From positions 103,883-167,882 of the forward strand of contig JAQVVF010000001.1 of NCBI GenBank assembly GCA_028699085.1: a DNA stretch of 64,000 bases. The letters run 5' to 3'. The notes beneath the pieces are model-generated. The model did no database searches and was not told the DNA's origin. It was given only the letters and a program-made list of their open reading frames with translations. Position 1 is the first letter of the stretch; every line of letters begins with the position of its first letter. This document shows positions 9,178 through 39,521 of this stretch, piece by piece. The position numbers and the translations under genes are program-made. Source of the DNA: Patescibacteria group bacterium (GTDB taxonomy: Bacteria > Patescibacteriota > JABMPQ01 > JAQVVF01).

Positions 9178-9933
9178 ATGATTAAGAAATTAGCTTTAAG
9201 CATTATATTTCTAGGGTTATTGGAATCAATTATTTATTTCCAAAAATCAAATATTGTTATTATCATTGCTGCTATTCTCTTATTTCTACTTTCACTTATT
9301 TCTTCAGTTCGGCTAAAAGTTTTACACAAAATTGGTTTTTGGGGACAAGTAAATATTTCTATTTTGCCTCTTTCGTATATTCTAAGTGCAACAGTTTTTT
9401 TATTGTTTGTTCCAGATCTATATTATTTACAGCAAATTTATCTAGGTCTAGCTACTATCATTTTTTACGGCGCTTTAAAGCTTGTCGAAAATGTTTGCAG
9501 AGATGTTAAAAGCAGAAATGCCTTCAAGACTTGTGATTTTTTAATCACAATCTCAGCTTTCTTATTTTATGCTAGTATCTTCGGATTGTATCTTTTCTTG
9601 CTATGGCCATCTTGGATCTTCCTGATTCTCTTAGCTTTTGTTACTTTCATCCTCACTTATGAATTCTTCTGGCATAATCTGCTCTTGCAAAAACACATTG
9701 TTTATTCATTGATTTTAACTTTAATAATCTCTGAAATCAGCTGGGCATTAACACTATGGCCAACAGGTTTTATGCCTAGAGCAATGGTCATTTTTACAGT
9801 CTTTTATGCCTTTACGACTCTATCTAAACATAATTTCAATAAGACCTTGAACAAAAAGGTTGTCAGAAATATTATTATAATTAGTATTTTAATCCTATTG
9901 CTGGCCTTGCTAACAACCCAGTGGACGTTTTAG
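9178..9933 (+). CDS. polytopic membrane protein, unknown function
   Basis: Long ORF, multiple hydrophobic helices, no recognisable motif. Confidence 0.5.
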   Translation: MIKKLALSIIFLGLLESIIYFQKSNIVIIIAAILLFLLSLISSVRLKVLHKIGFWGQVNISILPLSYILSATVFLLFVPDLYYLQQIYLGLATIIFYGALKLVENVCRDVKSRNAFKTCDFLITISAFLFYASIFGLYLFLLWPSWIFLILLAFVTFILTYEFFWHNLLLQKHIVYSLILTLIISEISWALTLWPTGFMPRAMVIFTVFYAFTTLSKHNFNKTLNKKVVRNIIIISILILLLALLTTQWTF

Positions 9934-12156: not shown

Positions 12157-12343
12157 TTTAGTTTATCAAAAAAGCCAAAAAAGCACAAATAATCGTCAAA
12201 AAATGGCTTATTCAAGCCTAGTTGTATAAATAATGTTGACAAATATTTTATATTGTGCTAATCTTTCATGATACATTCCTCAGGTTCTGGAAGCGGGATC
12301 GGACCCTACAACTGGAGAGAAACAAGGTAAGGAGGGCAAGGAA

Positions 12344-13384
12344 ATGAAGCGCAAGATCAACTGGATGCTGATGGTGGTGGTTTTCTATTTCTTCAACATC
12401 TTCAACCCGATCTACATGTTCATGGACGATGACGAGGGCCAGATCGCCTACGCGCAGGATGGATCCGAGCAGAAGGTCTGGACGATGCTGGATGCGGATC
12501 TGCAGGGCACCGGCGTGAGCTGGAAGCCCGCGTGGACCGAACAGCTCCAGGCTGCCAAGGCGATGATGGAAGCGAACCAGTTCTCCTGTCTCGAAGTGAG
12601 TGGTGTCGAGGACATCACCGGGTTCAACGTCGGCAACACGGAACTCCGTGCGGCCGGTGGTGAAGACCCGCTTCGGGCAGTGAGGGCGAGGGCGCGTGCC
12701 AGCTTCGTCATGAACAAGCTGATGGAGGTGGGTGTGGCGGGAAGCAAGATCCGTGAAGGTACCATGACGACCCGGGCCAACGAAGGCCAGAGGGGCGCCG
12801 TGATCCGCCTGATCGAGGACTGCATCCCCAAGCCGCCGGTCCAGTGCTGGGACAGCAACGAGAACTACAAGTGTGATGGTGATGAGGACGTGAACAAGGA
12901 CTCGGAGTGCAACGTGAAGGACTGCCAGGGGAACGACGGGACGGCCAAGGTCGAGATCAAGTACGACCTCGTCGGCCAGTACGTCAAGTACCTCGGAAGC
13001 CCCGAACGTGATCCGTTCACCGGAATCCTGCTCCGTGCCAACTTCCCCATCAGCGACAAGCTGACGTTGGGGCTGGCTGCGGAGTACGGCAAGGCGAACG
13101 AGATCGGTGCTGCCGGGTTCGAGCTCGACGCTGAGTGGGATTGGTTCCGCTGGATCAAACCGCGGATCAGTCTCATCGGCCGGGCCTACAACCTGACGAC
13201 GCACCTGTACTTCAAGCGTGGAGAAGTTGGTGGCGGCGTGGGCTTCAGCGGAGAACTCGTGGAGAATGAAAGCTGGTCCATCATCTATCAGGTGGTGGGC
13301 GAGTGGAAGTACGACATCGAGTACACCCGCTGGGAGTGGGAGGCGGTCAAGTCCGCGACGGGCGCCATCGGCGTCCGGTTCTGA
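12344..13384 (+). CDS. secreted OmpA-like-domain protein with C-terminal beta-strand-rich, OMP-like tail (paralogue P1, high-GC copy)
   Basis: AAGGAGGG RBS; hydrophobic N-terminus; CLEVSGVEDITGFNVGNTELRAAGGEDPLRAVRARARASFVMNKLMEVGVAGSKIREG resembles an OmpA_C peptidoglycan-binding domain; C-terminus ...GAIGVRF. Clear paralogy with the 15083 and 16072 proteins supports this strand over the antisense 12266..13444 ORF. Confidence 0.7.
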   Translation: MKRKINWMLMVVVFYFFNIFNPIYMFMDDDEGQIAYAQDGSEQKVWTMLDADLQGTGVSWKPAWTEQLQAAKAMMEANQFSCLEVSGVEDITGFNVGNTELRAAGGEDPLRAVRARARASFVMNKLMEVGVAGSKIREGTMTTRANEGQRGAVIRLIEDCIPKPPVQCWDSNENYKCDGDEDVNKDSECNVKDCQGNDGTAKVEIKYDLVGQYVKYLGSPERDPFTGILLRANFPISDKLTLGLAAEYGKANEIGAAGFELDAEWDWFRWIKPRISLIGRAYNLTTHLYFKRGEVGGGVGFSGELVENESWSIIYQVVGEWKYDIEYTRWEWEAVKSATGAIGVRF

Positions 13385-13470
13385 CGGAGAGTCCCGGGCG
13401 TCCGGCTTCGCAAGGAGTCGGGCGCCCGGTTCCGGGTGAGTCAACGGCAGAAGAGTGAGGAGGTAGAGAG

Positions 13471-14199
13471 ATGCGGAACTTCAAGCTGTGCATCATGGTG
13501 GCGATCCTGGCGATGGTGGTCGGATGTGCACTCGAGCCCCAGCCCAGCAACGGCAACGGCGGCAACGAGGGCGAAGGAGAAGGCGAGGGCGTCGAGGGTG
13601 AAGGCGAGGGCGAGGGTGAGCACCCCTGCGTGGCCGGCGAGTGCGAGGACGGGTTCGTCTGCATGGACGGGACCTGCGTGCCGGATGGGCAGGAGGGCGA
13701 GGGCGAGACGGACGGCGGCGTGGACGGCGGTGAAGGGTGCGAGTGCGACGGCGGCTGCGAGGGCGAGGGCGGCAACGAGTGCACCGAAGGGCAGCGGCAG
13801 TGCATCGAAAACGCGTGGCAGATCTGCGAGAGCAACGGCTACTGGGGTGTCCTGAACGACTGCCTCGAGGGCCAGATCTGCAACAACGGCAGCTGCGTGC
13901 CCGAGCCCGTGACCAACCCCTACACCTGCGCGGTCTGGATCAACGAGCGGGGAGAGCTGTGCGGTGACATCAACGGCCTGTCGTCGTGGACCTTCGGGTG
14001 CATGTACGAAGGGGTCGAACCGGTCTGCGAGCTGAACACCTACAACGGTGCATGCGTGCAGATCCCGGACGATGTCGTCAACACGGCATGGCCTCGGACG
14101 GAAGATGGCGGATGGCTGACGGTCGCGGGCTGCGAAGCGCGCGATGGTCTGGTCATCACCATCGACCCGGCAGGTGGTCACTTCCTGACGCTCCCCTAG
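13471..14199 (+). CDS. cysteine-rich lipoprotein with (GE)n low-complexity linker and EGF-like Cys modules
   Basis: GAGGAGG RBS; signal peptide plus lipobox MVVGC; GNEGEGEGEGVEGEGEGEGE tract; multiple CxxGxC motifs. Confidence 0.6.
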   Translation: MRNFKLCIMVAILAMVVGCALEPQPSNGNGGNEGEGEGEGVEGEGEGEGEHPCVAGECEDGFVCMDGTCVPDGQEGEGETDGGVDGGEGCECDGGCEGEGGNECTEGQRQCIENAWQICESNGYWGVLNDCLEGQICNNGSCVPEPVTNPYTCAVWINERGELCGDINGLSSWTFGCMYEGVEPVCELNTYNGACVQIPDDVVNTAWPRTEDGGWLTVAGCEARDGLVITIDPAGGHFLTLP

Positions 14200-14484
14200 A
14201 AACTTCAGTTCCCACCCGACAAACGCAAGTGCGTCGGGTGCGGCATTCTCTCCAACAATTCCAGTTCTTTCAGCGTACGTTCCTTCAAGAGTTCACTATT
14301 CAGTGGGCTCTTTTTTTATCCAAAAAAATATTGCATTTGAAACTTGGTTTTTGCTAAACCTTAGTTTCAAAGAGTGAGTATCAAATAGCCCTAAAGACAG
14401 AACACAATTACCAAGGCTAAAATATTGACAAATTTAGGCATTATAGTATAATACAAAGTCAAAACAGCACCTTTTGTACCTTCA

Positions 14485-14568
14485 GCCCGGATGGCGAAAG
14501 GGCAGCCGCAGGGGACTTAAAATCCTCCGTCGCAAGACATGCGGGTTCGAATCCCGCTCCGGGCACCA
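14485..14568 (+). tRNA. tRNA-Leu (anticodon UAA), type II with long variable arm
   Basis: Acceptor GCCCGGA/TCCGGGC, 3-bp D-stem with GG in loop, anticodon stem GGGGA/TCCTC with loop CTTAAAA (U33, TAA, A37), 13-nt variable arm with GTC/GAC stem, T-arm GCGGG-TTCGAAT-CCCGC, encoded CCA. Confidence 0.85.
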
Positions 14569-14597
14569 AAACATATCTCACGATATGTTTTTTTATT
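14569..14597 (+). terminator. rho-independent terminator after tRNA-Leu
   Basis: aacatatc-tcac-gatatgtt plus T7. Confidence 0.65.
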
Positions 14598-14609
14598 GTC
14601 AGAATCTAC

Positions 14610-14677
14610 GGGTTCGCCCCGCCATGAAGGCGGGGCGCCCTGGCCTTGTGCCAGGGCGAATCCCGCTCCGGGCACCA
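14610..14677 (+). repeat. 68-nt GC-rich tRNA-3'-end-derived element, copy 1 (GGGTTCG, two GC hairpins, then CGAATCCCGCTCCGGGCACCA)
   Basis: Last 21 nt identical to the 3' end of tRNA-Leu at 14548-14568; internal hairpins CCCCGCC-ATGAA-GGCGGGG and CCCTGGC-CTTGT-GCCAGGG; followed by its own terminator hairpin aacagtata-tta-ctatactgtttttt. Confidence 0.7.
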
Positions 14678-14725
14678 CAAAACAGTATATTACTATACTG
14701 TTTTTTCTTTAGATAAAAATGCTAA

Positions 14726-14793
14726 GGGTTCGCCCCGCCATGAAGGCGGGGCGCCCTGGCCTTGTGCCAGGGCGAATCCCGCTCCGGGCACCA
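14726..14793 (+). repeat. 68-nt GC-rich tRNA-3'-end-derived element, copy 2 (identical to copy 1)
   Basis: Identical 68 nt; followed by terminator hairpin agcagtatct...agatactgcttttttt. Confidence 0.7.
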
Positions 14794-15082
14794 TTAGCAG
14801 TTATCTTCAAGATACTGCTTTTTTTATCGCAAAAATAAAAAATTGTTATTTCAAAAGCTAATTTTCGAATATATGAAAATCGCAAAAAGCTTAAGAACAA
14901 TTTATTTGTTCAAGATAATTTATAAATACAATTATTATTTTGACAAATAGAATAACATTTGTGCGATTTGTGGCCGAAGGCATTCGCAAGATTAGTATGA
15001 AACACATTGACAAAGCAAAAAATAATGTTAAACTATCAAGTACAGAAAATCGCGCACTTTCCATTTCCAAAACGGAGGCATC

Positions 15083-15892
15083 ATGAAGACGATAGCAAGA
15101 TTCGTTGCTTTCACGTTGTTCATTATTCCTTTACAAAGTCTTGGCAAAGAGTGGCATGTACTTGATGACCATCAGGGCAAACTTTTGAATTGGCATAAAG
15201 AAGATTATTACACTCTTGAGGATATTATGCTTACGATTGCATCTAGACAGAAATCTTGTCTTGAAATTAGTGGCGCTGAAGAAGTAATTTCACTTCCATT
15301 CAATTCTCGTGATCAGGCAATTGGAAAATCAAAGTCATTTCGGGTAGCTTTAGCTAAGGTACGATCTGAATTTGTAATGGAAAAACTTTATGAAATAGGA
15401 GTGCCAAAAGCTAGGATCAGAGAAGGCCCCATTCTTAATCAGTCTGGTTATGGTGCTTATATTAAATTGATTGAAGAATGTTATCAGGAAGAGAATAAAA
15501 CAAAGTTGCCTGGCAAAGAAAAGATAGAAGATAGTAATAATGACAGCTATGATTTTCTTGGTCAGGGATCTAGCGATCAATATTTTGGCATTCATTTACG
15601 GAAAAGAATGTTGCTAGATGATGGCTTTGTTTTGAGGATTGGCGTAGGCATTGGCAAGACTCAAGACTATATTCTGACTCTAGAAGCAAATCTTGAATAT
15701 TTAATTGATCCAAATTTTAGTCCCTTTATTGCTACCTTTGTCAGAGATTATAATTTGTTAGAAAATGAAAAGATTGGCCTTGGGATTGGATTTACAACCA
15801 TAATTAATCAAACTAAAAGCTCAAGTATTTTTCTCGAAGTTGAATTGCAAGATTCAGTTGATGTTGAGGCAAGTATCGGAATTCGTTTTTAG
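15083..15892 (+). CDS. secreted OmpA-like-domain protein with C-terminal beta-rich OMP-like tail (paralogue P2, low-GC copy)
   Basis: GGAGG RBS, signal peptide; CLEISGAEEVISLPFNSRDQAIGKSKSFRVALAKVRSEFVMEKLYEIGVPKARIREG; alternating hydrophobic strands; terminal ...ASIGIRF. Confidence 0.7.
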   Translation: MKTIARFVAFTLFIIPLQSLGKEWHVLDDHQGKLLNWHKEDYYTLEDIMLTIASRQKSCLEISGAEEVISLPFNSRDQAIGKSKSFRVALAKVRSEFVMEKLYEIGVPKARIREGPILNQSGYGAYIKLIEECYQEENKTKLPGKEKIEDSNNDSYDFLGQGSSDQYFGIHLRKRMLLDDGFVLRIGVGIGKTQDYILTLEANLEYLIDPNFSPFIATFVRDYNLLENEKIGLGIGFTTIINQTKSSSIFLEVELQDSVDVEASIGIRF

Positions 15893-16071
15893 AACGCACA
15901 TTAGAGTTGCATTTGCAGCTCTTTTTTATTGTTAGCTATTTGACAATAATTTAGAAAAATAGTATTATCAATGGACCAAGTTTTAGATTGTACTCAAAAA
16001 TTTATTGACCAAGGGGACGGGCGCAGGTGCATATTGACAGCAGAGGAAGGCCAACCAGCACAGGAGGCCAT

Positions 16072-17331
16072 ATGAAGCGCTGTAGAGGTATATTGACCGT
16101 TCTTACTCTATGCCTTTTTGCCAGAGCTTCACATGCAGAGCAAGTTCAATGTCCATTCTCCGAAGTACCCGTATTTACAGCAGGCAAGATGACATGTACG
16201 CTAGCCAGCAAGACTGGATTCGTTATTGTCTTTGCACCTGAAAATTATTTGATTTTCATCAATACTCATCAAGTCAAGGAAGTTCCATACGATCGGCAAA
16301 ATGAAAGCTACAAGATTAATCTTTTGCCTGGCAACTATCAGATCAATATCATGAATGGCAGTGATATCTTCAAAGAAGAATCTATAAAAATTGAAGTCGG
16401 AAAGGGTATTTCAATCATCTTTGCATCACCAAAACTATTGTTCAAGACACCTAACGTTACTTATGCCCAGATTCGGCCAGAGCAGGTGATACAGAAGTGG
16501 GAATTGCTCAATGCATCGCTGAAGGGTATCGATTGTGTTTGGAAAGACGAATGGAAGCCCATATTGGCAAAGGTAGCAGAGGCAGTAAAAAAGGCAGAAC
16601 CAACTTCTTGCCTTGATATTGCCGGAGTTGATGATATTCATGATTTTGTGGGCATTAGCTATCCTGAAATAAGAGCAGCTGGCAGTCAGGAAGCTTTCCA
16701 TGCAATTCGAGCGCAAGGTCGAGCCAGCTTGATTATGTATCGTCTGGAAATGGATTATAATGTTCCACCACAGAGATTACGTGAAGGCAAGATTGAGATC
16801 AAAGGCGAAAAGGGTGTTAGAGGTGTGCGGATCACTCTCGTAAAGGATTGCGCCCATTTGCAAACAAGCCCTAGAAGTCTACCAAGTCAGGCAAGTCGCG
16901 TTGCAGATTCTTCAAGGTTTTCGTCAACTAGTATCAAGAAAAAGCGTCGTTGGGAAGCAATGTATGATGCGAGCTTTATCTTTGGTGTCGGGTACCATAC
17001 ATATCTTGGTAGAAAAGTATTCCAAACTCATCAAGCAGAATTCAAGGCTGATTTTAATTCAGTCTTGGTATATGCTGGAATGAGACTTGGAACAGCAGAT
17101 TACCAAGATTTTATGCCAGGAGTGAAGCTATCTCTTGGTTACAATTTTCAATATCTTAAGCCTCGGATCGGCATTTTAATTACTGCTTATCCAGCTCAAA
17201 GTATAATTGAATATAGCTTGACAACAGGCATTAATCTTTTGTTGCCGATTGAAAATCTATTCATCGGACCTCATTACGAAGTTAGCACTTTAGGACAACA
17301 TGGTTATCTAGCACTTGGTTACGAACTTTAG
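16072..17331 (+). CDS. secreted OmpA-like-domain protein with C-terminal beta-rich tail (paralogue P3, intermediate GC); start moved to ATG 16072 with AGGAGG RBS
   Basis: Signal peptide MKRCRGILTVLTLCLFARASHA; CLDIAGVDDIHDFVGISYPEIRAAGSQEAFHAIRAQGRASLIMYRLEMDYNVPPQRLREG; C-terminal alternating beta-strand pattern. Confidence 0.65.
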   Translation: MKRCRGILTVLTLCLFARASHAEQVQCPFSEVPVFTAGKMTCTLASKTGFVIVFAPENYLIFINTHQVKEVPYDRQNESYKINLLPGNYQINIMNGSDIFKEESIKIEVGKGISIIFASPKLLFKTPNVTYAQIRPEQVIQKWELLNASLKGIDCVWKDEWKPILAKVAEAVKKAEPTSCLDIAGVDDIHDFVGISYPEIRAAGSQEAFHAIRAQGRASLIMYRLEMDYNVPPQRLREGKIEIKGEKGVRGVRITLVKDCAHLQTSPRSLPSQASRVADSSRFSSTSIKKKRRWEAMYDASFIFGVGYHTYLGRKVFQTHQAEFKADFNSVLVYAGMRLGTADYQDFMPGVKLSLGYNFQYLKPRIGILITAYPAQSIIEYSLTTGINLLLPIENLFIGPHYEVSTLGQHGYLALGYEL

Positions 17332-18897: not shown

Positions 18898-18904
18898 TTT
18901 ATTA

Positions 18905-18954
18905 ATTGCGGCCTGGCCTTCAGGCCAGGACCCAGGCTAAAGCCTGGGCCACAA
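18905..18954 (+). repeat. GC-rich Y-shaped structured intergenic element, copy 2
   Basis: TTGCGGCC...GGCCACAA outer stem; hairpins TGGCC-TTCA-GGCCA and CAGGC-TAAA-GCCTG; compensatory changes relative to the 899-952 copy keep the pairing. Confidence 0.55.
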
Positions 18955-18965
18955 TACAAAAAAGT

Positions 18966-31495: not shown

Positions 31496-31570
31496 ATTGT
31501 GAAGAAAAAAATAGTATTTATAATCGGCTTAACCAGCTTAATATTATTAGGTTTAGTTATTTATATTTAT

Positions 31571-31621
<51 letters not shown>

Positions 31622-35282: not shown

Positions 35283-36377
35283 ATGAGATCGCACATTACA
35301 AAATTATTTTTGTTGTCTTCAGTTTTTATTGCAAGCTCTGTGTATGCTGAAGAGCCTGAAAAGGTTCCGTCTCATCCTGATTTTTCGATCGTTTTGCTTG
35401 CTGGCAATGGTCAGAAGGCTGATTTGCCAGATGCTGCAATTGAAATTTTGATTGCCAAGTTTGCAGGAAGCAGCTTGAATCTGAGTCTGGCTGGAAAGGA
35501 AATCTTCGGTGTAATGTCTGATGAAGAAATTAGAACTTGTTTTGCAACTGATGGTTGCGTTCGCAATGTCTGCATTACCAAGCAGATGGGTAGGATGCTT
35601 TATGGGACAATCATTCAGGAAAAAGGCAAAGCAGTCAAGTCTAAGCAGGAAGGCAAGAAGCCAAAAAAGAAGGTCAAAAGTGCTAAGCCTGCCAAGAAAT
35701 CAACTACTTTGCTTTCCATTGAGTTGACATTGTTTGACGCAATCAATAACAAGATTGATACGAGTTGGACATGCAAAAAATGTCCACAAGAAGAGCTTTA
35801 TGAAAAGACAATTCCTGAAATTGCCGATACTGCAATCAGCATTATGGCCAAAAACCCGCAGATTTGGTCCGAAAGGAAACCAAGCTTGCGTGCTGATGAA
35901 GCAGCCCTCGGCCTTCAGCCACAGGAAATTGAAGTTCTGCCTCCACCTCCAGTCGCATCTGCAGAAGAGGCAAAACAACCGGAAGTTGAAGTAAGGAAAG
36001 AACCTGTTGTCAAGGTCGAGAAAAAGATCGAAGTCAAGAAGCCTGGGCTTGACTGGCATTCTTGGACTGGAATTGCCTTGATGAGCATTGGCGCTGGTAT
36101 GGTTGGAACAGGTGCATATTTCGGCGTAGATGCCAACAATGCCCGTTCCAATTATGAAGCAACAAATGTCCAGCGACAAGCAATGGAATATATGGACCAG
36201 TCAGAATCTTCTGCTGGTAAAGCAAATATCATGTACAGTGCTGGTGGTGCTATCTTGCTAACTGGAGCAACAATTTTCTTGCTGGATTATTTTGAAATCA
36301 TTCACAAGAGCACAACTGCTCCGCAAGCATTGATCATTTCGCAACCGAGCGGACTCGTCTTGAACCTTTCTTTCTAA
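35283..36377 (+). CDS. secreted protein with Lys-rich linker and C-terminal TM anchor, unknown; elevated GC
   Basis: GGAGGGAGAG RBS; signal peptide; KKPKKKVKSAKPAKK tract; C-terminal hydrophobic segments. Confidence 0.5.
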   Translation: MRSHITKLFLLSSVFIASSVYAEEPEKVPSHPDFSIVLLAGNGQKADLPDAAIEILIAKFAGSSLNLSLAGKEIFGVMSDEEIRTCFATDGCVRNVCITKQMGRMLYGTIIQEKGKAVKSKQEGKKPKKKVKSAKPAKKSTTLLSIELTLFDAINNKIDTSWTCKKCPQEELYEKTIPEIADTAISIMAKNPQIWSERKPSLRADEAALGLQPQEIEVLPPPPVASAEEAKQPEVEVRKEPVVKVEKKIEVKKPGLDWHSWTGIALMSIGAGMVGTGAYFGVDANNARSNYEATNVQRQAMEYMDQSESSAGKANIMYSAGGAILLTGATIFLLDYFEIIHKSTTAPQALIISQPSGLVLNLSF

Positions 36378-36395: not shown

Positions 36396-36656
36396 TTTTT
36401 ATTTACATTGTTATTCAATATATTTATGCATAAATTTGATATTAACCATTTTTTTATTAAAAAACAAACTTTTTTGATAAGTAGGTCCATAAAGCTTGTT
36501 TTTTTATGCTCAAAATTGACAAAAACAACATAAATAGCTACAATAAGCCATTTTTATCTTGCCAAATTATTATTAATATGCTATATTAATTTGAACAGAA
36601 AACCCAAGGTTTCGGCTGTACTGACCGAACCTTTCATAGCAAAGAGGAGGAGAGAG

Positions 36657-39521
36657 ATGAAGCCAAGAAACATGGTTGTCTTTTTGTTTTGTTGTGTGAT
36701 TTTGAGTGGCTGTCTCAAGCCGAACGAAGATTTTTCGAAGAATCTGTGCGATGAAGATGTGCGTTGTTCTGATGGATTTACCTGTATCTGCAACATGGAA
36801 AATCATACCAAGATTTGCGTCAGTGAGTCTGATCTTCCTGAGAACGCTGTTTATGCCAGCAAGGAGACGATCTGCATGATCGAATCCGATGCCGGAGTTG
36901 ATGTCGGAACTGATGTTGAAGCTGATGGCAATGTGCCTGATGCTGAAACTGATGTCCAGACTGATGCTTCGTCTGATGCAGAACAAGATGGAGGCTCGGA
37001 TCTTTCGCCTGACAATGGAACCGATTTGGCTCCTGACTCTGGTGAAGATATCCCTTGTATTCCGTCTACTGAAATCTGCGACCTCAAGGACAACGACTGC
37101 GACGGCGACACTGATGAAGATTTCAACAATCTGAATCAGGCCTGCTCGTCTGGCTTGGGTGAGTGTGAAGCTTCTGGCGTCTACGTTTGTAGCGTCGATG
37201 GCAAGAACACTACTTGCAACGCAGTCGCAGGAATTGCTGTTGCTGAAGAATGTGATGAACTGGACAATGATTGTGACGGCGTTACTGACGAAGAGTTGGT
37301 TGGCTGTTGCGATGAAGACGATGTCCAGGAGTGTGGATCTGATGTTGGTGAATGCCAGAAGGGTCAAATGACTTGTCAGGAAGACGGCAGTTGGGGACAG
37401 TGCGAAAACGCTGTTGCTCCGATTGTTGATCTTTGCGATGACAAGGACAATGATTGCGATGGCAACACCGACGAGGATTTCATTAATCTGAATTCTGCTT
37501 GTCAGATTGGTCAGGGCGCTTGTCTTTCGCATGGCGTTTTTGCTTGTAGCGAAGACAGCCTCACGACCGAATGCAACGCTGAAATCATCCAGCCTTCCGA
37601 AGAGGTATGCGATCAGCAGGATAACAACTGCGATGGCAATACTGATGAAGATTTGGCTGGCTGTTGCATTCCCGATGATCAGGTTGTTTGTGGCTCCAAT
37701 GTTGGCGAATGCCGGCAGGGCCTCAAGACTTGTTCAGCGGAAGGCGTCTGGAGCGAATGTGTCGGCGAAGTCAAGGTTGCAGAAGAGCTTTGTGATAGCA
37801 AGGACAACAACTGCGACGGCTTCATCGATGAAAAGTTCGTTAATCTTCATGCACAGTGCCAGATCGGAATTGGCGAATGCGTATCGACAGGCACAATGAT
37901 TTGCGCAATTGATCAGCAATCGCTGTCTTGCAACGCAGAAGTCAAAGTCGGAAGCGACGAGACCTGTGACAACAAGGACAATGACTGTGATGGTAATACC
38001 GATGAAGAGCTGACGCGTGAATGCGGCTCTGATGTCGGCGAATGCCAGAAGGGCGTGCAGTCTTGTTCCGCTGGTGGCTGGCTTGTCTGCGAAGGCGAGA
38101 TTCAGTCGAGCGACGAGATCTGTGACGGCCAAGATAACAACTGCGACAACAATACTGACGAAGGTTTCAACATTGGCGATCAGTGCTTCAACGGACTTGG
38201 CGAATGCCGGACCGAAGGCGTGATTGCTTGTGTTGATGAAAATCAGAGTGCTTGCAATGCAGTTGCCGGCTCAGCAAGCGAAGAGCTTTGCGATGGCCTG
38301 GATAACGATTGCGACGATTTGATCGATGAAGAGCTGGAAGACTGTTGTGAGCCTGGCACAATTTCTGAGTGCGGTATTGATACTGGGGAATGTGTGAAGG
38401 GAACTTCCACGTGCCTGGCAGACCGCTCTTGGGACTGGTGTTTTGGAGCAACTGGACCTTCCATGGAAGAATGCGATGGCAAGGATAATGACTGCGATGG
38501 CGAAAACGACAATGATCTGATTGGCTGTTGCTCTCCGGGTGTTTCTCGCAATTGCGGTATCGATGAAGGCGAATGCCGAATCGGAACGCAGACTTGCTGG
38601 GAAAATCGGGAATGGGGCGCATGCCAGAATCAGATCTCGCCGACTGATGAGATCTGTGATGGTTTGGACAACAACTGCGATGGTTTCACTGATGAGGACT
38701 TTGACCTCACCTTTGATACCAACAACTGCGGTAGTTGTAACCACATTTGCGGAAATCAGGGGACAGCGAGTTCAATCTGCGAAGCTGGTGAATGCATTCT
38801 GCAATGCAGTCGCTTCCGCTTCGATGTGAATGCTGATCCTGCTGATGGATGTGAATGTGAAGTCACCAACTGCGGAGTGGAAATCTGCGATCAGGTTGAC
38901 AATGACTGCGATGGCGCTGTCGACGAAGACTGCCAGTCGCTGGTCATGTACCTGTCATTTGACAACCATTTCAATGATGGTTCAACGAATGCTAACAATG
39001 CTGTCAACCACGGCGCCACTTTCACTGCGGATGCAGTTTGTGGCCAGGCAGCATCGTTCGACGGAGTCGACGATTATGCTGAAGTGGATAGCGTGAGTAT
39101 GAATAGTATTGGTAATGAGTTTACGTTCTTCGCAACAGTCAAGGTGCGAAGTTTCGAGCTCAATGACAGAATTTTCAATAAATATCTAAACAAGCCAAGT
39201 ATTGGAATTGATTTTTCCGATAATGTTGGAAACTGCTGGAATTTTATGTTGTCTTCAAACAACATTGGTTGTAACAAGGCAGTAGCTGTCCAGACATGGA
39301 TTACCATTGCCGGAAAATATAGTAATGGTAGATTCATTTCTTATGTAAATGGTGAAAAAGATGTAGACGTAAATACTGCCAACATGCTAGGTACAAAAAT
39401 GTACATCGGTGCATCTAGCAATTCTGGAACAAAGAGTGATATGATTATTGATCAACTTGTTTTTTACAACAAGGCATTTTCGGAAGAAGAAATCGTACAT
39501 TATTTTAAAATCCTAAAGTAG
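36657..39521 (+). CDS. 955-aa cysteine-rich repeat lipoprotein: 11 x CD.xDN[DN]CDGxTDE (MopE/putative-metal-binding-like) repeats plus C-terminal LamG (Laminin_G_3/concanavalin-like) domain
   Basis: AAGAGGAGG RBS then ATG 36657; lipobox ILSGC; alternating repeat modules; C-terminal ...AASFDGVDDYAEVDSV...LVFYNKAFSEEEIVHYF typical of LamG_3. Moderately GC-rich (~50%). Confidence 0.75.
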   Translation: MKPRNMVVFLFCCVILSGCLKPNEDFSKNLCDEDVRCSDGFTCICNMENHTKICVSESDLPENAVYASKETICMIESDAGVDVGTDVEADGNVPDAETDVQTDASSDAEQDGGSDLSPDNGTDLAPDSGEDIPCIPSTEICDLKDNDCDGDTDEDFNNLNQACSSGLGECEASGVYVCSVDGKNTTCNAVAGIAVAEECDELDNDCDGVTDEELVGCCDEDDVQECGSDVGECQKGQMTCQEDGSWGQCENAVAPIVDLCDDKDNDCDGNTDEDFINLNSACQIGQGACLSHGVFACSEDSLTTECNAEIIQPSEEVCDQQDNNCDGNTDEDLAGCCIPDDQVVCGSNVGECRQGLKTCSAEGVWSECVGEVKVAEELCDSKDNNCDGFIDEKFVNLHAQCQIGIGECVSTGTMICAIDQQSLSCNAEVKVGSDETCDNKDNDCDGNTDEELTRECGSDVGECQKGVQSCSAGGWLVCEGEIQSSDEICDGQDNNCDNNTDEGFNIGDQCFNGLGECRTEGVIACVDENQSACNAVAGSASEELCDGLDNDCDDLIDEELEDCCEPGTISECGIDTGECVKGTSTCLADRSWDWCFGATGPSMEECDGKDNDCDGENDNDLIGCCSPGVSRNCGIDEGECRIGTQTCWENREWGACQNQISPTDEICDGLDNNCDGFTDEDFDLTFDTNNCGSCNHICGNQGTASSICEAGECILQCSRFRFDVNADPADGCECEVTNCGVEICDQVDNDCDGAVDEDCQSLVMYLSFDNHFNDGSTNANNAVNHGATFTADAVCGQAASFDGVDDYAEVDSVSMNSIGNEFTFFATVKVRSFELNDRIFNKYLNKPSIGIDFSDNVGNCWNFMLSSNNIGCNKAVAVQTWITIAGKYSNGRFISYVNGEKDVDVNTANMLGTKMYIGASSNSGTKSDMIIDQLVFYNKAFSEEEIVHYFKILK

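Follow-up and report, generated by a model that had tools for sequence, protein, structure and literature searches.

The REP and BIME sequences of Enterobacteria and Pseudomonas are GC-rich extragenic palindromes, often paired, which lie in transcribed intergenic DNA, are kept as hairpins and promote rearrangements. REPs occur in hundreds of dispersed copies, carry a conserved tetranucleotide and are associated with a RAYT transposase. The 3′ external transcribed spacer (3′ETS) of leuZ in E. coli, which is not a copy of a tRNA end, is reported to have demonstrated small-RNA-sponge activity. The double-hairpin elements and GC clusters of mitochondria are described, in the accounts given by PMC10085805 (citing Paquin et al. 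2000) and PMC4478555, as short sequences of more than 75% GC with two hairpins, in which changes are found mainly in the loops and which are sometimes located within rRNA genes. The tandem ssrA genomic islands of Dehalococcoides carry direct repeats of the tmRNA 3′ end that were left by integrative elements (PMC3146451). The present analysis concerns a locus of a Patescibacteria group bacterium (GenBank assembly GCA_028699085.1, contig JAQVVF010000001.1, positions 103,883 to 167,882; this whole 64,000-nt stretch is referred to as the window, and coordinates are those of the window unless another contig is named), in which a tRNA-Leu(UAA) gene is followed by two identical 68-nt units that repeat the tail of the tRNA around a GC-rich double hairpin. 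These units may well be tail relics of the tRNA that carry a double-hairpin palindrome, have no dedicated function and owe their second copy to recombination within the shared core, a reading held with middling confidence.

The window covers a cell-envelope and polysaccharide gene cluster of ~30% GC, whose proteins carry the label Patescibacteria in NCBI, and the units lie on its forward strand at 14610-14677 (unit 1) and 14726-14793 (unit 2). A repeat search returned a 72-nt direct repeat at 14606-14677 and 14722-14793 whose sole mismatch is confined to the 4-nt flank, and the two 68-mers are therefore identical. Each unit comprises the last 26 nt of tRNA-Leu(UAA), from the T-stem 5′ strand to CCA and with one CG counted twice, interrupted by a 40-nt module. 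In unit 1, the outer-stem 5′ arm GGGTTCG (14610-14616) is followed by hairpin 1 (14617-14635), a CG, hairpin 2 (14638-14656), the outer-stem 3′ arm CGAATCC (14657-14663) and a free tail, CGCTCCGGGCACCA (14664-14677), all on the forward strand. The module reads CCCCGCC ATGAA GGCGGGG CG CCCTGGC CTTGT GCCAGGG, with G or C at 32 of its 40 bases (80%) against a background of ~30%, and it splits the T-loop palindrome TTCGAA into TTCG-module-CGAA, so that CG stands on both sides. The 21-mer CGAATCCCGCTCCGGGCACCA, the core common to tRNA and units, occurs three times without mismatch (14548, 14657 and 14773) and nowhere else in the 64 kb; shuffled sequences gave 0 matches. An earlier note on this DNA, made from the letters alone, had placed the tRNA and both units exactly, as the repeat search, ARAGORN and Rfam confirmed, and had correctly described the two-hairpin module within T-loop sequence and the three direct copies of the 21-mer. 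Its statement that the last 24 nt of each unit are the 3′ end of the tRNA holds as to derivation, but the identity spans 21 nt.

Folding reproduced the three-way arrangement that had been proposed, in which an outer stem, GGGUUCG/CGAAUCC, encloses two GC hairpins at −43.5 kcal/mol with a z-score of −3.6. The units have no acceptor 5′ strand, D arm or anticodon arm, and ARAGORN in default, intron and relaxed modes, together with Rfam RF00005, calls only 14485-14568 as a tRNA; the ARAGORN calls that touch the units are spurious antisense ones (ps70-80). The units are non-tRNA stubs derived from the T-arm and acceptor 3′ strand of the adjacent tRNA. An insertion in the T-loop with exact tRNA sequence on its flanks would also be compatible with the 3′ half of a split or intron-containing tRNA of the archaeal style, the module then being an intron or a pairing leader. 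However, a matching 5′ half did not turn up, sequence complementary to the tail occurs in the 64 kb only antisense to the tRNA and the units, and an intact tRNA-Leu stands ~40 nt upstream. The hairpins are moreover self-complementary and have no need of a partner, ARAGORN is negative in intron mode, and the genome is bacterial, a member of the candidate phyla radiation (CPR); this alternative is effectively refuted, with a negligible remaining probability.

The tRNA gene itself (14485-14568, forward strand) is intact, with 84 nt, an encoded CCA, a cloverleaf fold, an ARAGORN call and an Rfam RF00005 score of 51.1 bits, and is the single tRNA of the window according to both ARAGORN and Rfam. 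Three AT-rich hairpins, 3′ of the tRNA, of unit 1 and of unit 2, are each followed by a U-run, as in intrinsic terminators, and are referred to as terminators A, B and C, all on the forward strand. Terminator A (14569-14594) is an AT-rich 10-bp hairpin with T7, terminator B (14679-14706) a hairpin with T6, and terminator C (14796-14825) a hairpin of the form AGCAGT...ACTGCT with a T-run. The folds bear out the earlier claim that a different hairpin and T-run stands behind each unit. A simple terminator scan missed all three, because their stems hold too few G-C pairs, while they are clear in the folds; the two GC hairpins of the module have no U-run and do not qualify as intrinsic terminators. 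The spacers between the repeat copies consist of these terminators only (41-48 nt).

The history of the units can be followed in relatives that were gathered through exact-protein look-ups and homologues of the flanking genes, and which revealed five configurations of one syntenic slot, defined from a glycosyltransferase gene (GT4) through a high-GC island to an O-antigen-ligase-like gene (Wzy). The first is that of L011 (a 645-kb contig with a Wzy 84% identical), with tRNA-Lys, tRNA-Leu, a terminator and no unit. The second (L007 and L016, Wzy 93%) belongs to the Candidatus Saccharibacteria metagenome-assembled genome (MAG) CAZNOH010000001.1, the one related genome returned by the looser pattern GGGTTCG-N25-55-core, and has tRNA-Leu, a terminator, one unit, a terminator and Wzy. 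The third is that of strain B, represented by six contigs (L001, L003-L006 and L008) from independent JGI and Logan samples, with a tRNA-Leu of 86 nt and a different variable arm, terminator B, one unit and terminator C. The window provides the fourth, in which the 84-nt tRNA is followed by terminator A, a unit, terminator B, a unit and terminator C. The fifth (L009, L010 and L017) has neither tRNA nor unit, a ~315-nt deletion having left the 3′ half of the last terminator, and that half of terminator C persists in L009/L017.

Comparison of these configurations showed that a single stub with its own terminator is common to three Saccharibacteria lineages (the window, strain B and CAZNOH01) and is missing in the next relative. 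Unit 2 of the window is the ortholog of the single unit of strain B and L016. Terminator A was not found in strain B or L016 and is restricted to the left-hand haplotype of the window, terminator B stands directly 3′ of the tRNA itself in strain B, and terminator C is ~75% conserved in L016. The high-GC island, a two-gene block at 12260-14310 directly upstream of the tRNA, has 65% GC and a GC content at third codon positions (GC3) of 0.84-0.86 versus 0.22-0.27 in the neighbouring genes. It is present in all five configurations and therefore predates the units, since L011 has it without any unit; the island is older than the unit and unrelated to it. The suggestion that the hairpins echo the composition of this island found no support, as blastn-short detected no sequence similarity of the module to the island in any lineage.

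The origin of the second copy is recorded in the alignment to strain B. By blastn, window positions 12189-14677 match L003 2646-5121 at 71% identity, and positions 14657-15897 match L003 4985-6226, collinear with the first match, at 99.5%. The step in identity from 71% to 99.5% coincides exactly with the 21-nt core of unit 1 (14657-14677), which occupies the position of the core at the 3′ end of the strain B tRNA; hence terminator B comes after unit 1 in the window but after the tRNA in strain B. The window gained its second unit through a junction located within the shared 21-nt core. Such a junction could have arisen by unequal or homology-facilitated recombination during inter-strain exchange of the hypervariable upstream island. 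Briefly, one haplotype would have carried island-A, tRNA-A, terminator A and a unit, the other a tRNA, terminator B, a unit and terminator C, and the core in the unit of one haplotype would have paired with the tRNA core of the other. The first stub might have come from a partial tandem duplication of the segment from T-arm to terminator, or might be an old integration scar.

A mis-join of two co-occurring single-unit strains, one with terminator A and the other with terminator B between tRNA and unit, at the shared 21-nt core during assembly would give an array of the same form, and the exact coincidence of the identity switch with a short repeat is what a chimera built at small k would look like. 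On the other hand, the 21-nt core is shorter than the usual final k-mers, and a window-type Logan contig from an independent run (L002) breaks exactly one k-mer past unit-specific context: it starts with 30 nt of unit-specific sequence (GTGCCAGGG plus the core) and continues with T, the first base of terminator C. In Logan assemblies k is 31, and a start one k-mer into the unit implies more than one successor of the unit-specific 30-mer in this independent sample, which is the expectation for a two-unit array; the strain B Logan contigs L005 and L006 run through the unit without a break. The single-unit state in other lineages makes the core object real regardless. The two-unit array is thus very probably real and an assembly chimera unlikely.

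The module has a history of its own. In L016 it reads CCCCGCC ACAAG GGCGGGG CG CCCTGCC TTCAT GGCAGGG, and its loops ACAAG and TTCAT are obtained exactly, in swapped order, when the window loops CTTGT and ATGAA are reverse-complemented (10 of 10 nt; probability by chance ~1e-6). The best blastn-short alignment of the two modules lies on opposite strands (32/36, E = 6e-6, versus 25/28, E = 1e-3). Inversion of the centre, from loop 1 through loop 2, leaves four differences, compared with eight for the direct alignment and six for inversion of the whole module. The four remaining changes are exactly those that repair the heteroduplex stems CCCCGCC/GCCAGGG, and the second stem of L016, CCCTGCC/GGCAGGG, is a hybrid in which one mismatch was fixed toward each arm. 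Between the two lineages the centre of the module was inverted, and the changes that followed each restored a Watson-Crick pair.

All pairs of the hairpins are Watson-Crick, with zero G-U pairs, and the chance that all 14 would be intact after eight random substitutions is 1.5e-4; the pairing has therefore been actively maintained. Judged from the sequences, pairs of the Watson-Crick type only, combined with free orientation, would fit a constraint on DNA or on both strands better than a constraint on a single RNA. A covariation count on the three distinct sequences, which has no power at that number, found one compensated pair, a value reached by 189 of 500 shuffles. The module would be read as a palindrome that is selfish or maintains itself through its structure, comparable to the mitochondrial double-hairpin elements and GC clusters. 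As to its source, derivation of the hairpin arms from the tRNA's own T-stem and acceptor strands was rejected, since 5/7 matches are no better than chance for GC-rich heptamers and the match is weaker in L016. Capture of a restriction fragment at TT^CGAA was dropped as pure speculation.

Maintained pairing is also what would be expected if the units were small-RNA genes derived from the tRNA, each encoding a 54-nt three-way junction with a free 14-nt CCA-ending tail and its own terminator. Such an RNA would imitate the tRNA-Leu 3′ end, as a mimic or decoy, or would use its tail for base pairing. The very stable fold (z-scores of −3.6 to −6), hairpins that are perfect in two diverged lineages with a compensated change, the hairpin and U-run 3′ of every unit and the persistence of the unit in three lineages are all consistent with this possibility, as are −10-like hexamers (CAGAAT, TAAAAT and TATAAT) that precede GGGTTCG by 2-5 nt in each of the three contexts. 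However, no two-hexamer promoter precedes any unit (the window and L016 were scanned, and strain B shares the upstream sequence of unit 2). The earlier note had regarded all three members of the array as promoter-less, which stands for the units but fails for the tRNA: at 14425-14452 on the forward strand lies a sigma-70 type promoter, TTGACA and TATAAT with a 16-nt spacer, that matches the consensus at 12 of 12 positions and is kept in strain B and L016.

Further points speak against small-RNA genes. The inversion of the module centre between lineages turned the loops into their complements, no hairpin contains a G-U pair, and strain B tolerates a G-to-T mismatch at the loop-closing pair in all six contigs. 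L011 lacks the unit, and L017 has lost the entire block. A search of the 64 kb for a trans partner of the tail gave none, its complement being found only on the antisense strand of the tRNA and units, and the units matched no Rfam family. On this evidence the small-RNA interpretation appears less likely than that of relic stubs; it is possible but improbable. Less probable again is its fullest form, in which the units would be an expressed and selected, undescribed class of tRNA-tail RNA in CPR bacteria, with an array that expands by core recombination. It is just as improbable that a rigid GC-rich three-way junction would serve to display a free 14-nt acceptor 3′ strand of tRNA-Leu ending in CCA, and one would give equally small credence to a decoy or sponge for readers of tRNA 3′ ends, such as CCA-adding or -modifying enzymes, toxins or phage integrases. 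Stubs that were expressed would represent an unusual mimic of a tRNA 3′ end. Under the relic interpretation, in contrast, the units would have no dedicated function and would be present at most in read-through transcripts started at the tRNA promoter, folded there into a highly stable three-way junction ahead of the next terminator.

The array also resembles a series of attachment (att) sites, and the earlier note had proposed iterated att-site duplications. In this scenario, an element with a tyrosine integrase of the T-loop class would have integrated into tRNA-Leu once or repeatedly and later been lost, the stubs being its scars and the module a remnant of the element ends. The direct repeats are identical to the tRNA 3′ end (the 21-mer three times and, with the GGGTTCG arm, the whole 26-nt tail), and they run from the T-stem 5′ strand to CCA, an identity block that is said to be typical of T-loop-targeting integrases in the classification made by Williams in 2002. 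The locus is moreover a rearrangement hot spot with insertion sequence (IS) genes nearby in strain B (L003), and tandem 3′-end repeats at tRNA and tmRNA genes are well known, for example from ssrA islands (PMC3146451).

Nevertheless, the 56 open reading frames (ORFs) of at least 90 amino acids in the window were free of integrase, recombinase and transposase domains in Pfam searches, and the 21-mer does not recur at any island end in the 64 kb. No foreign block is bracketed by the repeats, which enclose only terminator-sized spacers, and the high-GC island lies upstream of the tRNA, lacks a distal repeat and predates the stub. A mere 2-nt duplication accompanies the split of the T-loop by the module, which does not abut a 7-nt overlap, and the core junction accounts for the extra copy. 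No phage- or plasmid-like match to the region was obtained, and searches of the phage collection with region 14600-14800 (blastn) and with the first island ORF (tblastn) gave no match. Taken together, an att-site or integrase origin of the units is not supported, and the scar scenario, although it deserves slightly more weight than a chimeric assembly, is doubtful.

One candidate for a phage attachment site (attP) was considered and rejected, namely the only match of the 21-mer in viral contigs, a high-GC phage-like contig with a whole tRNA-Leu(UAA) (L020, IMGVR_UViG_3300046657_000030). Its 78-nt tRNA-Leu(TAA) lies at 368-445, the contig also carries a WhiB-like ORF, and CCCCGCC/GGCGGGG hairpins flank the tRNA. 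The last 30 nt of this tRNA, GTGCGGGTTCGAATCCCGCTCCGGGCACCA, are also found in the strain B tRNA, and the window tRNA shares the last 29 nt.

Whether the module belongs to a wider family of repeats bears on its nature. In the window, the related loci and, under the patterns used, the public collections, the 68-mer was not encountered as a repeat unrelated to tRNAs, an outcome that the earlier note had named as contrary to its tRNA link. The looser pattern GGGTTCG-N25-55-core had no match in the metagenome and viral sets, the JGI and Logan relatives evidently lying outside the metagenome set. The window contains two more GC-rich double hairpins that are enclosed by an outer stem. One (E1, 898-953) lies in the 5′ leader of typA/bipA, ~12 nt upstream of the start codon, and the other (E2, 18904-18956) between Wzy and the next glycosyltransferase gene, ~12 nt before the start codon. 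They are clearly related to each other, sharing a TTGYGG...CCACAA outer stem, two 7-bp hairpins and the loops TTYA and TAAA, and three-way junctions of this type arise at ~0.1 per shuffled window. At the position of E2, strain B, L016 and L011 each have a different palindrome, so that turnover of small palindromes in these spacers is rapid. Rfam searches of the units, E1 and E2 at permissive E-values returned sub-threshold noise only. E1 and E2 show that GC-rich double-hairpin palindromes occur elsewhere in this AT-rich genome.

Several observations weigh against the interpretation of the units as functionless relics with a self-maintaining palindrome. Stems that stayed perfect in two lineages through compensated changes might just as well be the result of selection acting on an RNA. 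In addition, every unit has retained a terminator, and the stub outlived a divergence that scrambled the adjacent spacers. The mobile-element origin of the module is unproven, as the window and ~200 kb of related loci yielded no further copies and the exact module, with its loops as N, gave 0 matches in the genome, metagenome and viral collections; E1 and E2 match the units in architecture and not in sequence. The two-unit array, to which the chimera-like identity switch described above also applies, derives from one MAG assembly and an inference from one contig end.

The surroundings of the tRNA are variable in other respects. The two ORFs of the high-GC island (12344-13384 and 13471-14199, forward strand) have their own AT-rich promoter and their own terminator. 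The island occupies the same slot in every relative found and is yet hypervariable, its first ORF being 51-69% identical versus 100% for a flanking 269-aa protein, and homologs of the island among 5.8 billion proteins are these same loci only. Three paralogous secreted proteins without a Pfam domain flank the tRNA (12344-13384, 15083-15892 and 16027-17331, with a GC content of 65%, 35% and 41%, respectively); they share a SCLE-SG...REG...LIEDC core, and the number of paralogs downstream of the tRNA varies by lineage (0, 1 or 2). In one strain B contig (L003 79-2606), IS-type genes (HTH_38, and rve_3 with HTH_23/28/32) stand immediately upstream of the high-GC island, a position held in the window by the GT4 glycosyltransferase gene.

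Short repeated sequences accompany these genes. AT-rich inverted repeats, GAAACTCGGTTT / AAACCGAGTTTC, are numerous in the spacers around the tRNA in relatives (L011 7660-7810 and 8250-8400; L016/L009), and the window has one degenerate copy at 14336-14371. A conserved motif composed of GCGATTTGTGGCC, GAAGGCATTCG and (CA/TG)AGATT(A/T)GTA is located just upstream of TTGACA promoters (window 14957-14997, L011 8401-8442 and L016 ~9640-9670), with paralog genes behind it in the case of the window and L011, and the tRNA in the case of L016; this GCGATTTGTGGCC-GAAGGCATTCG motif may be a shared operator or an UP-like element. Elsewhere in the window, a second compositional anomaly comprises a 976-aa MopE-motif/Laminin_G_3 protein (36591-39521; 47% GC, GC3 0.48) and a 364-aa protein (35283-36377; 43% GC, GC3 0.40), and a (TA)n microsatellite of ~45 nt (31570-31621) lies between metK-like and UDP-glucose dehydrogenase genes.

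As they stand, the units are a well-documented curiosity rather than a new system. If the interpretation as tRNA-tail relics holds, crossover between diverged strains of an ultra-small episymbiont can take place in a conserved tRNA tail of 21 nt, the exchanged island being one of hypervariable surface proteins, and the tandem stubs left behind can be mistaken for att sites. It would also document, in a bacterium of ~30% GC, GC-rich double-hairpin palindromes of a type so far known mainly from AT-rich mitochondria, with one such palindrome inside tRNA T-loop sequence whose centre was flipped between lineages and whose pairing was entirely restored.

Compared with the described systems, the units share with E. 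coli 3′ETS-leuZ the encoding of a structured segment directly 3′ of a tRNA-Leu gene and before its terminator; unlike that spacer, they copy the tRNA end and are known here from sequence alone. The module is a GC-rich paired palindrome in the manner of REP and BIME, but no dispersed copies, conserved tetranucleotide, RAYT transposase or other transposase domain were seen in the window. As in the Dehalococcoides ssrA islands (PMC3146451), several direct copies of a 3′ end stand right downstream of the gene, the repeated block extends from T-arm to CCA, and the copy number varies among strains. Unlike those islands (PMC3146451), the window has no integrase and no cargo between the repeats, which are separated by terminators of 41-48 nt, its T-loop sequence is interrupted by a palindrome, and its extra copy stems from a core junction of diverged haplotypes and not from a new integration. 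The mitochondrial double-hairpin elements and GC clusters, as portrayed in PMC10085805 and PMC4478555, differ in their host, which here is a bacterium, and the module occupies one site only (apart from the architecture of E1 and E2), its mobility and family status are unproven, and its insertion duplicates CG within TTCGAA. It nevertheless agrees with what these sources report of the mitochondrial elements in its length of ~40 nt, its GC content of more than 75% in a genome of ~30% GC and its two adjacent hairpins, as well as in the concentration of changes in the loops while the stems are kept, and in its location within the sequence of a structural-RNA gene.

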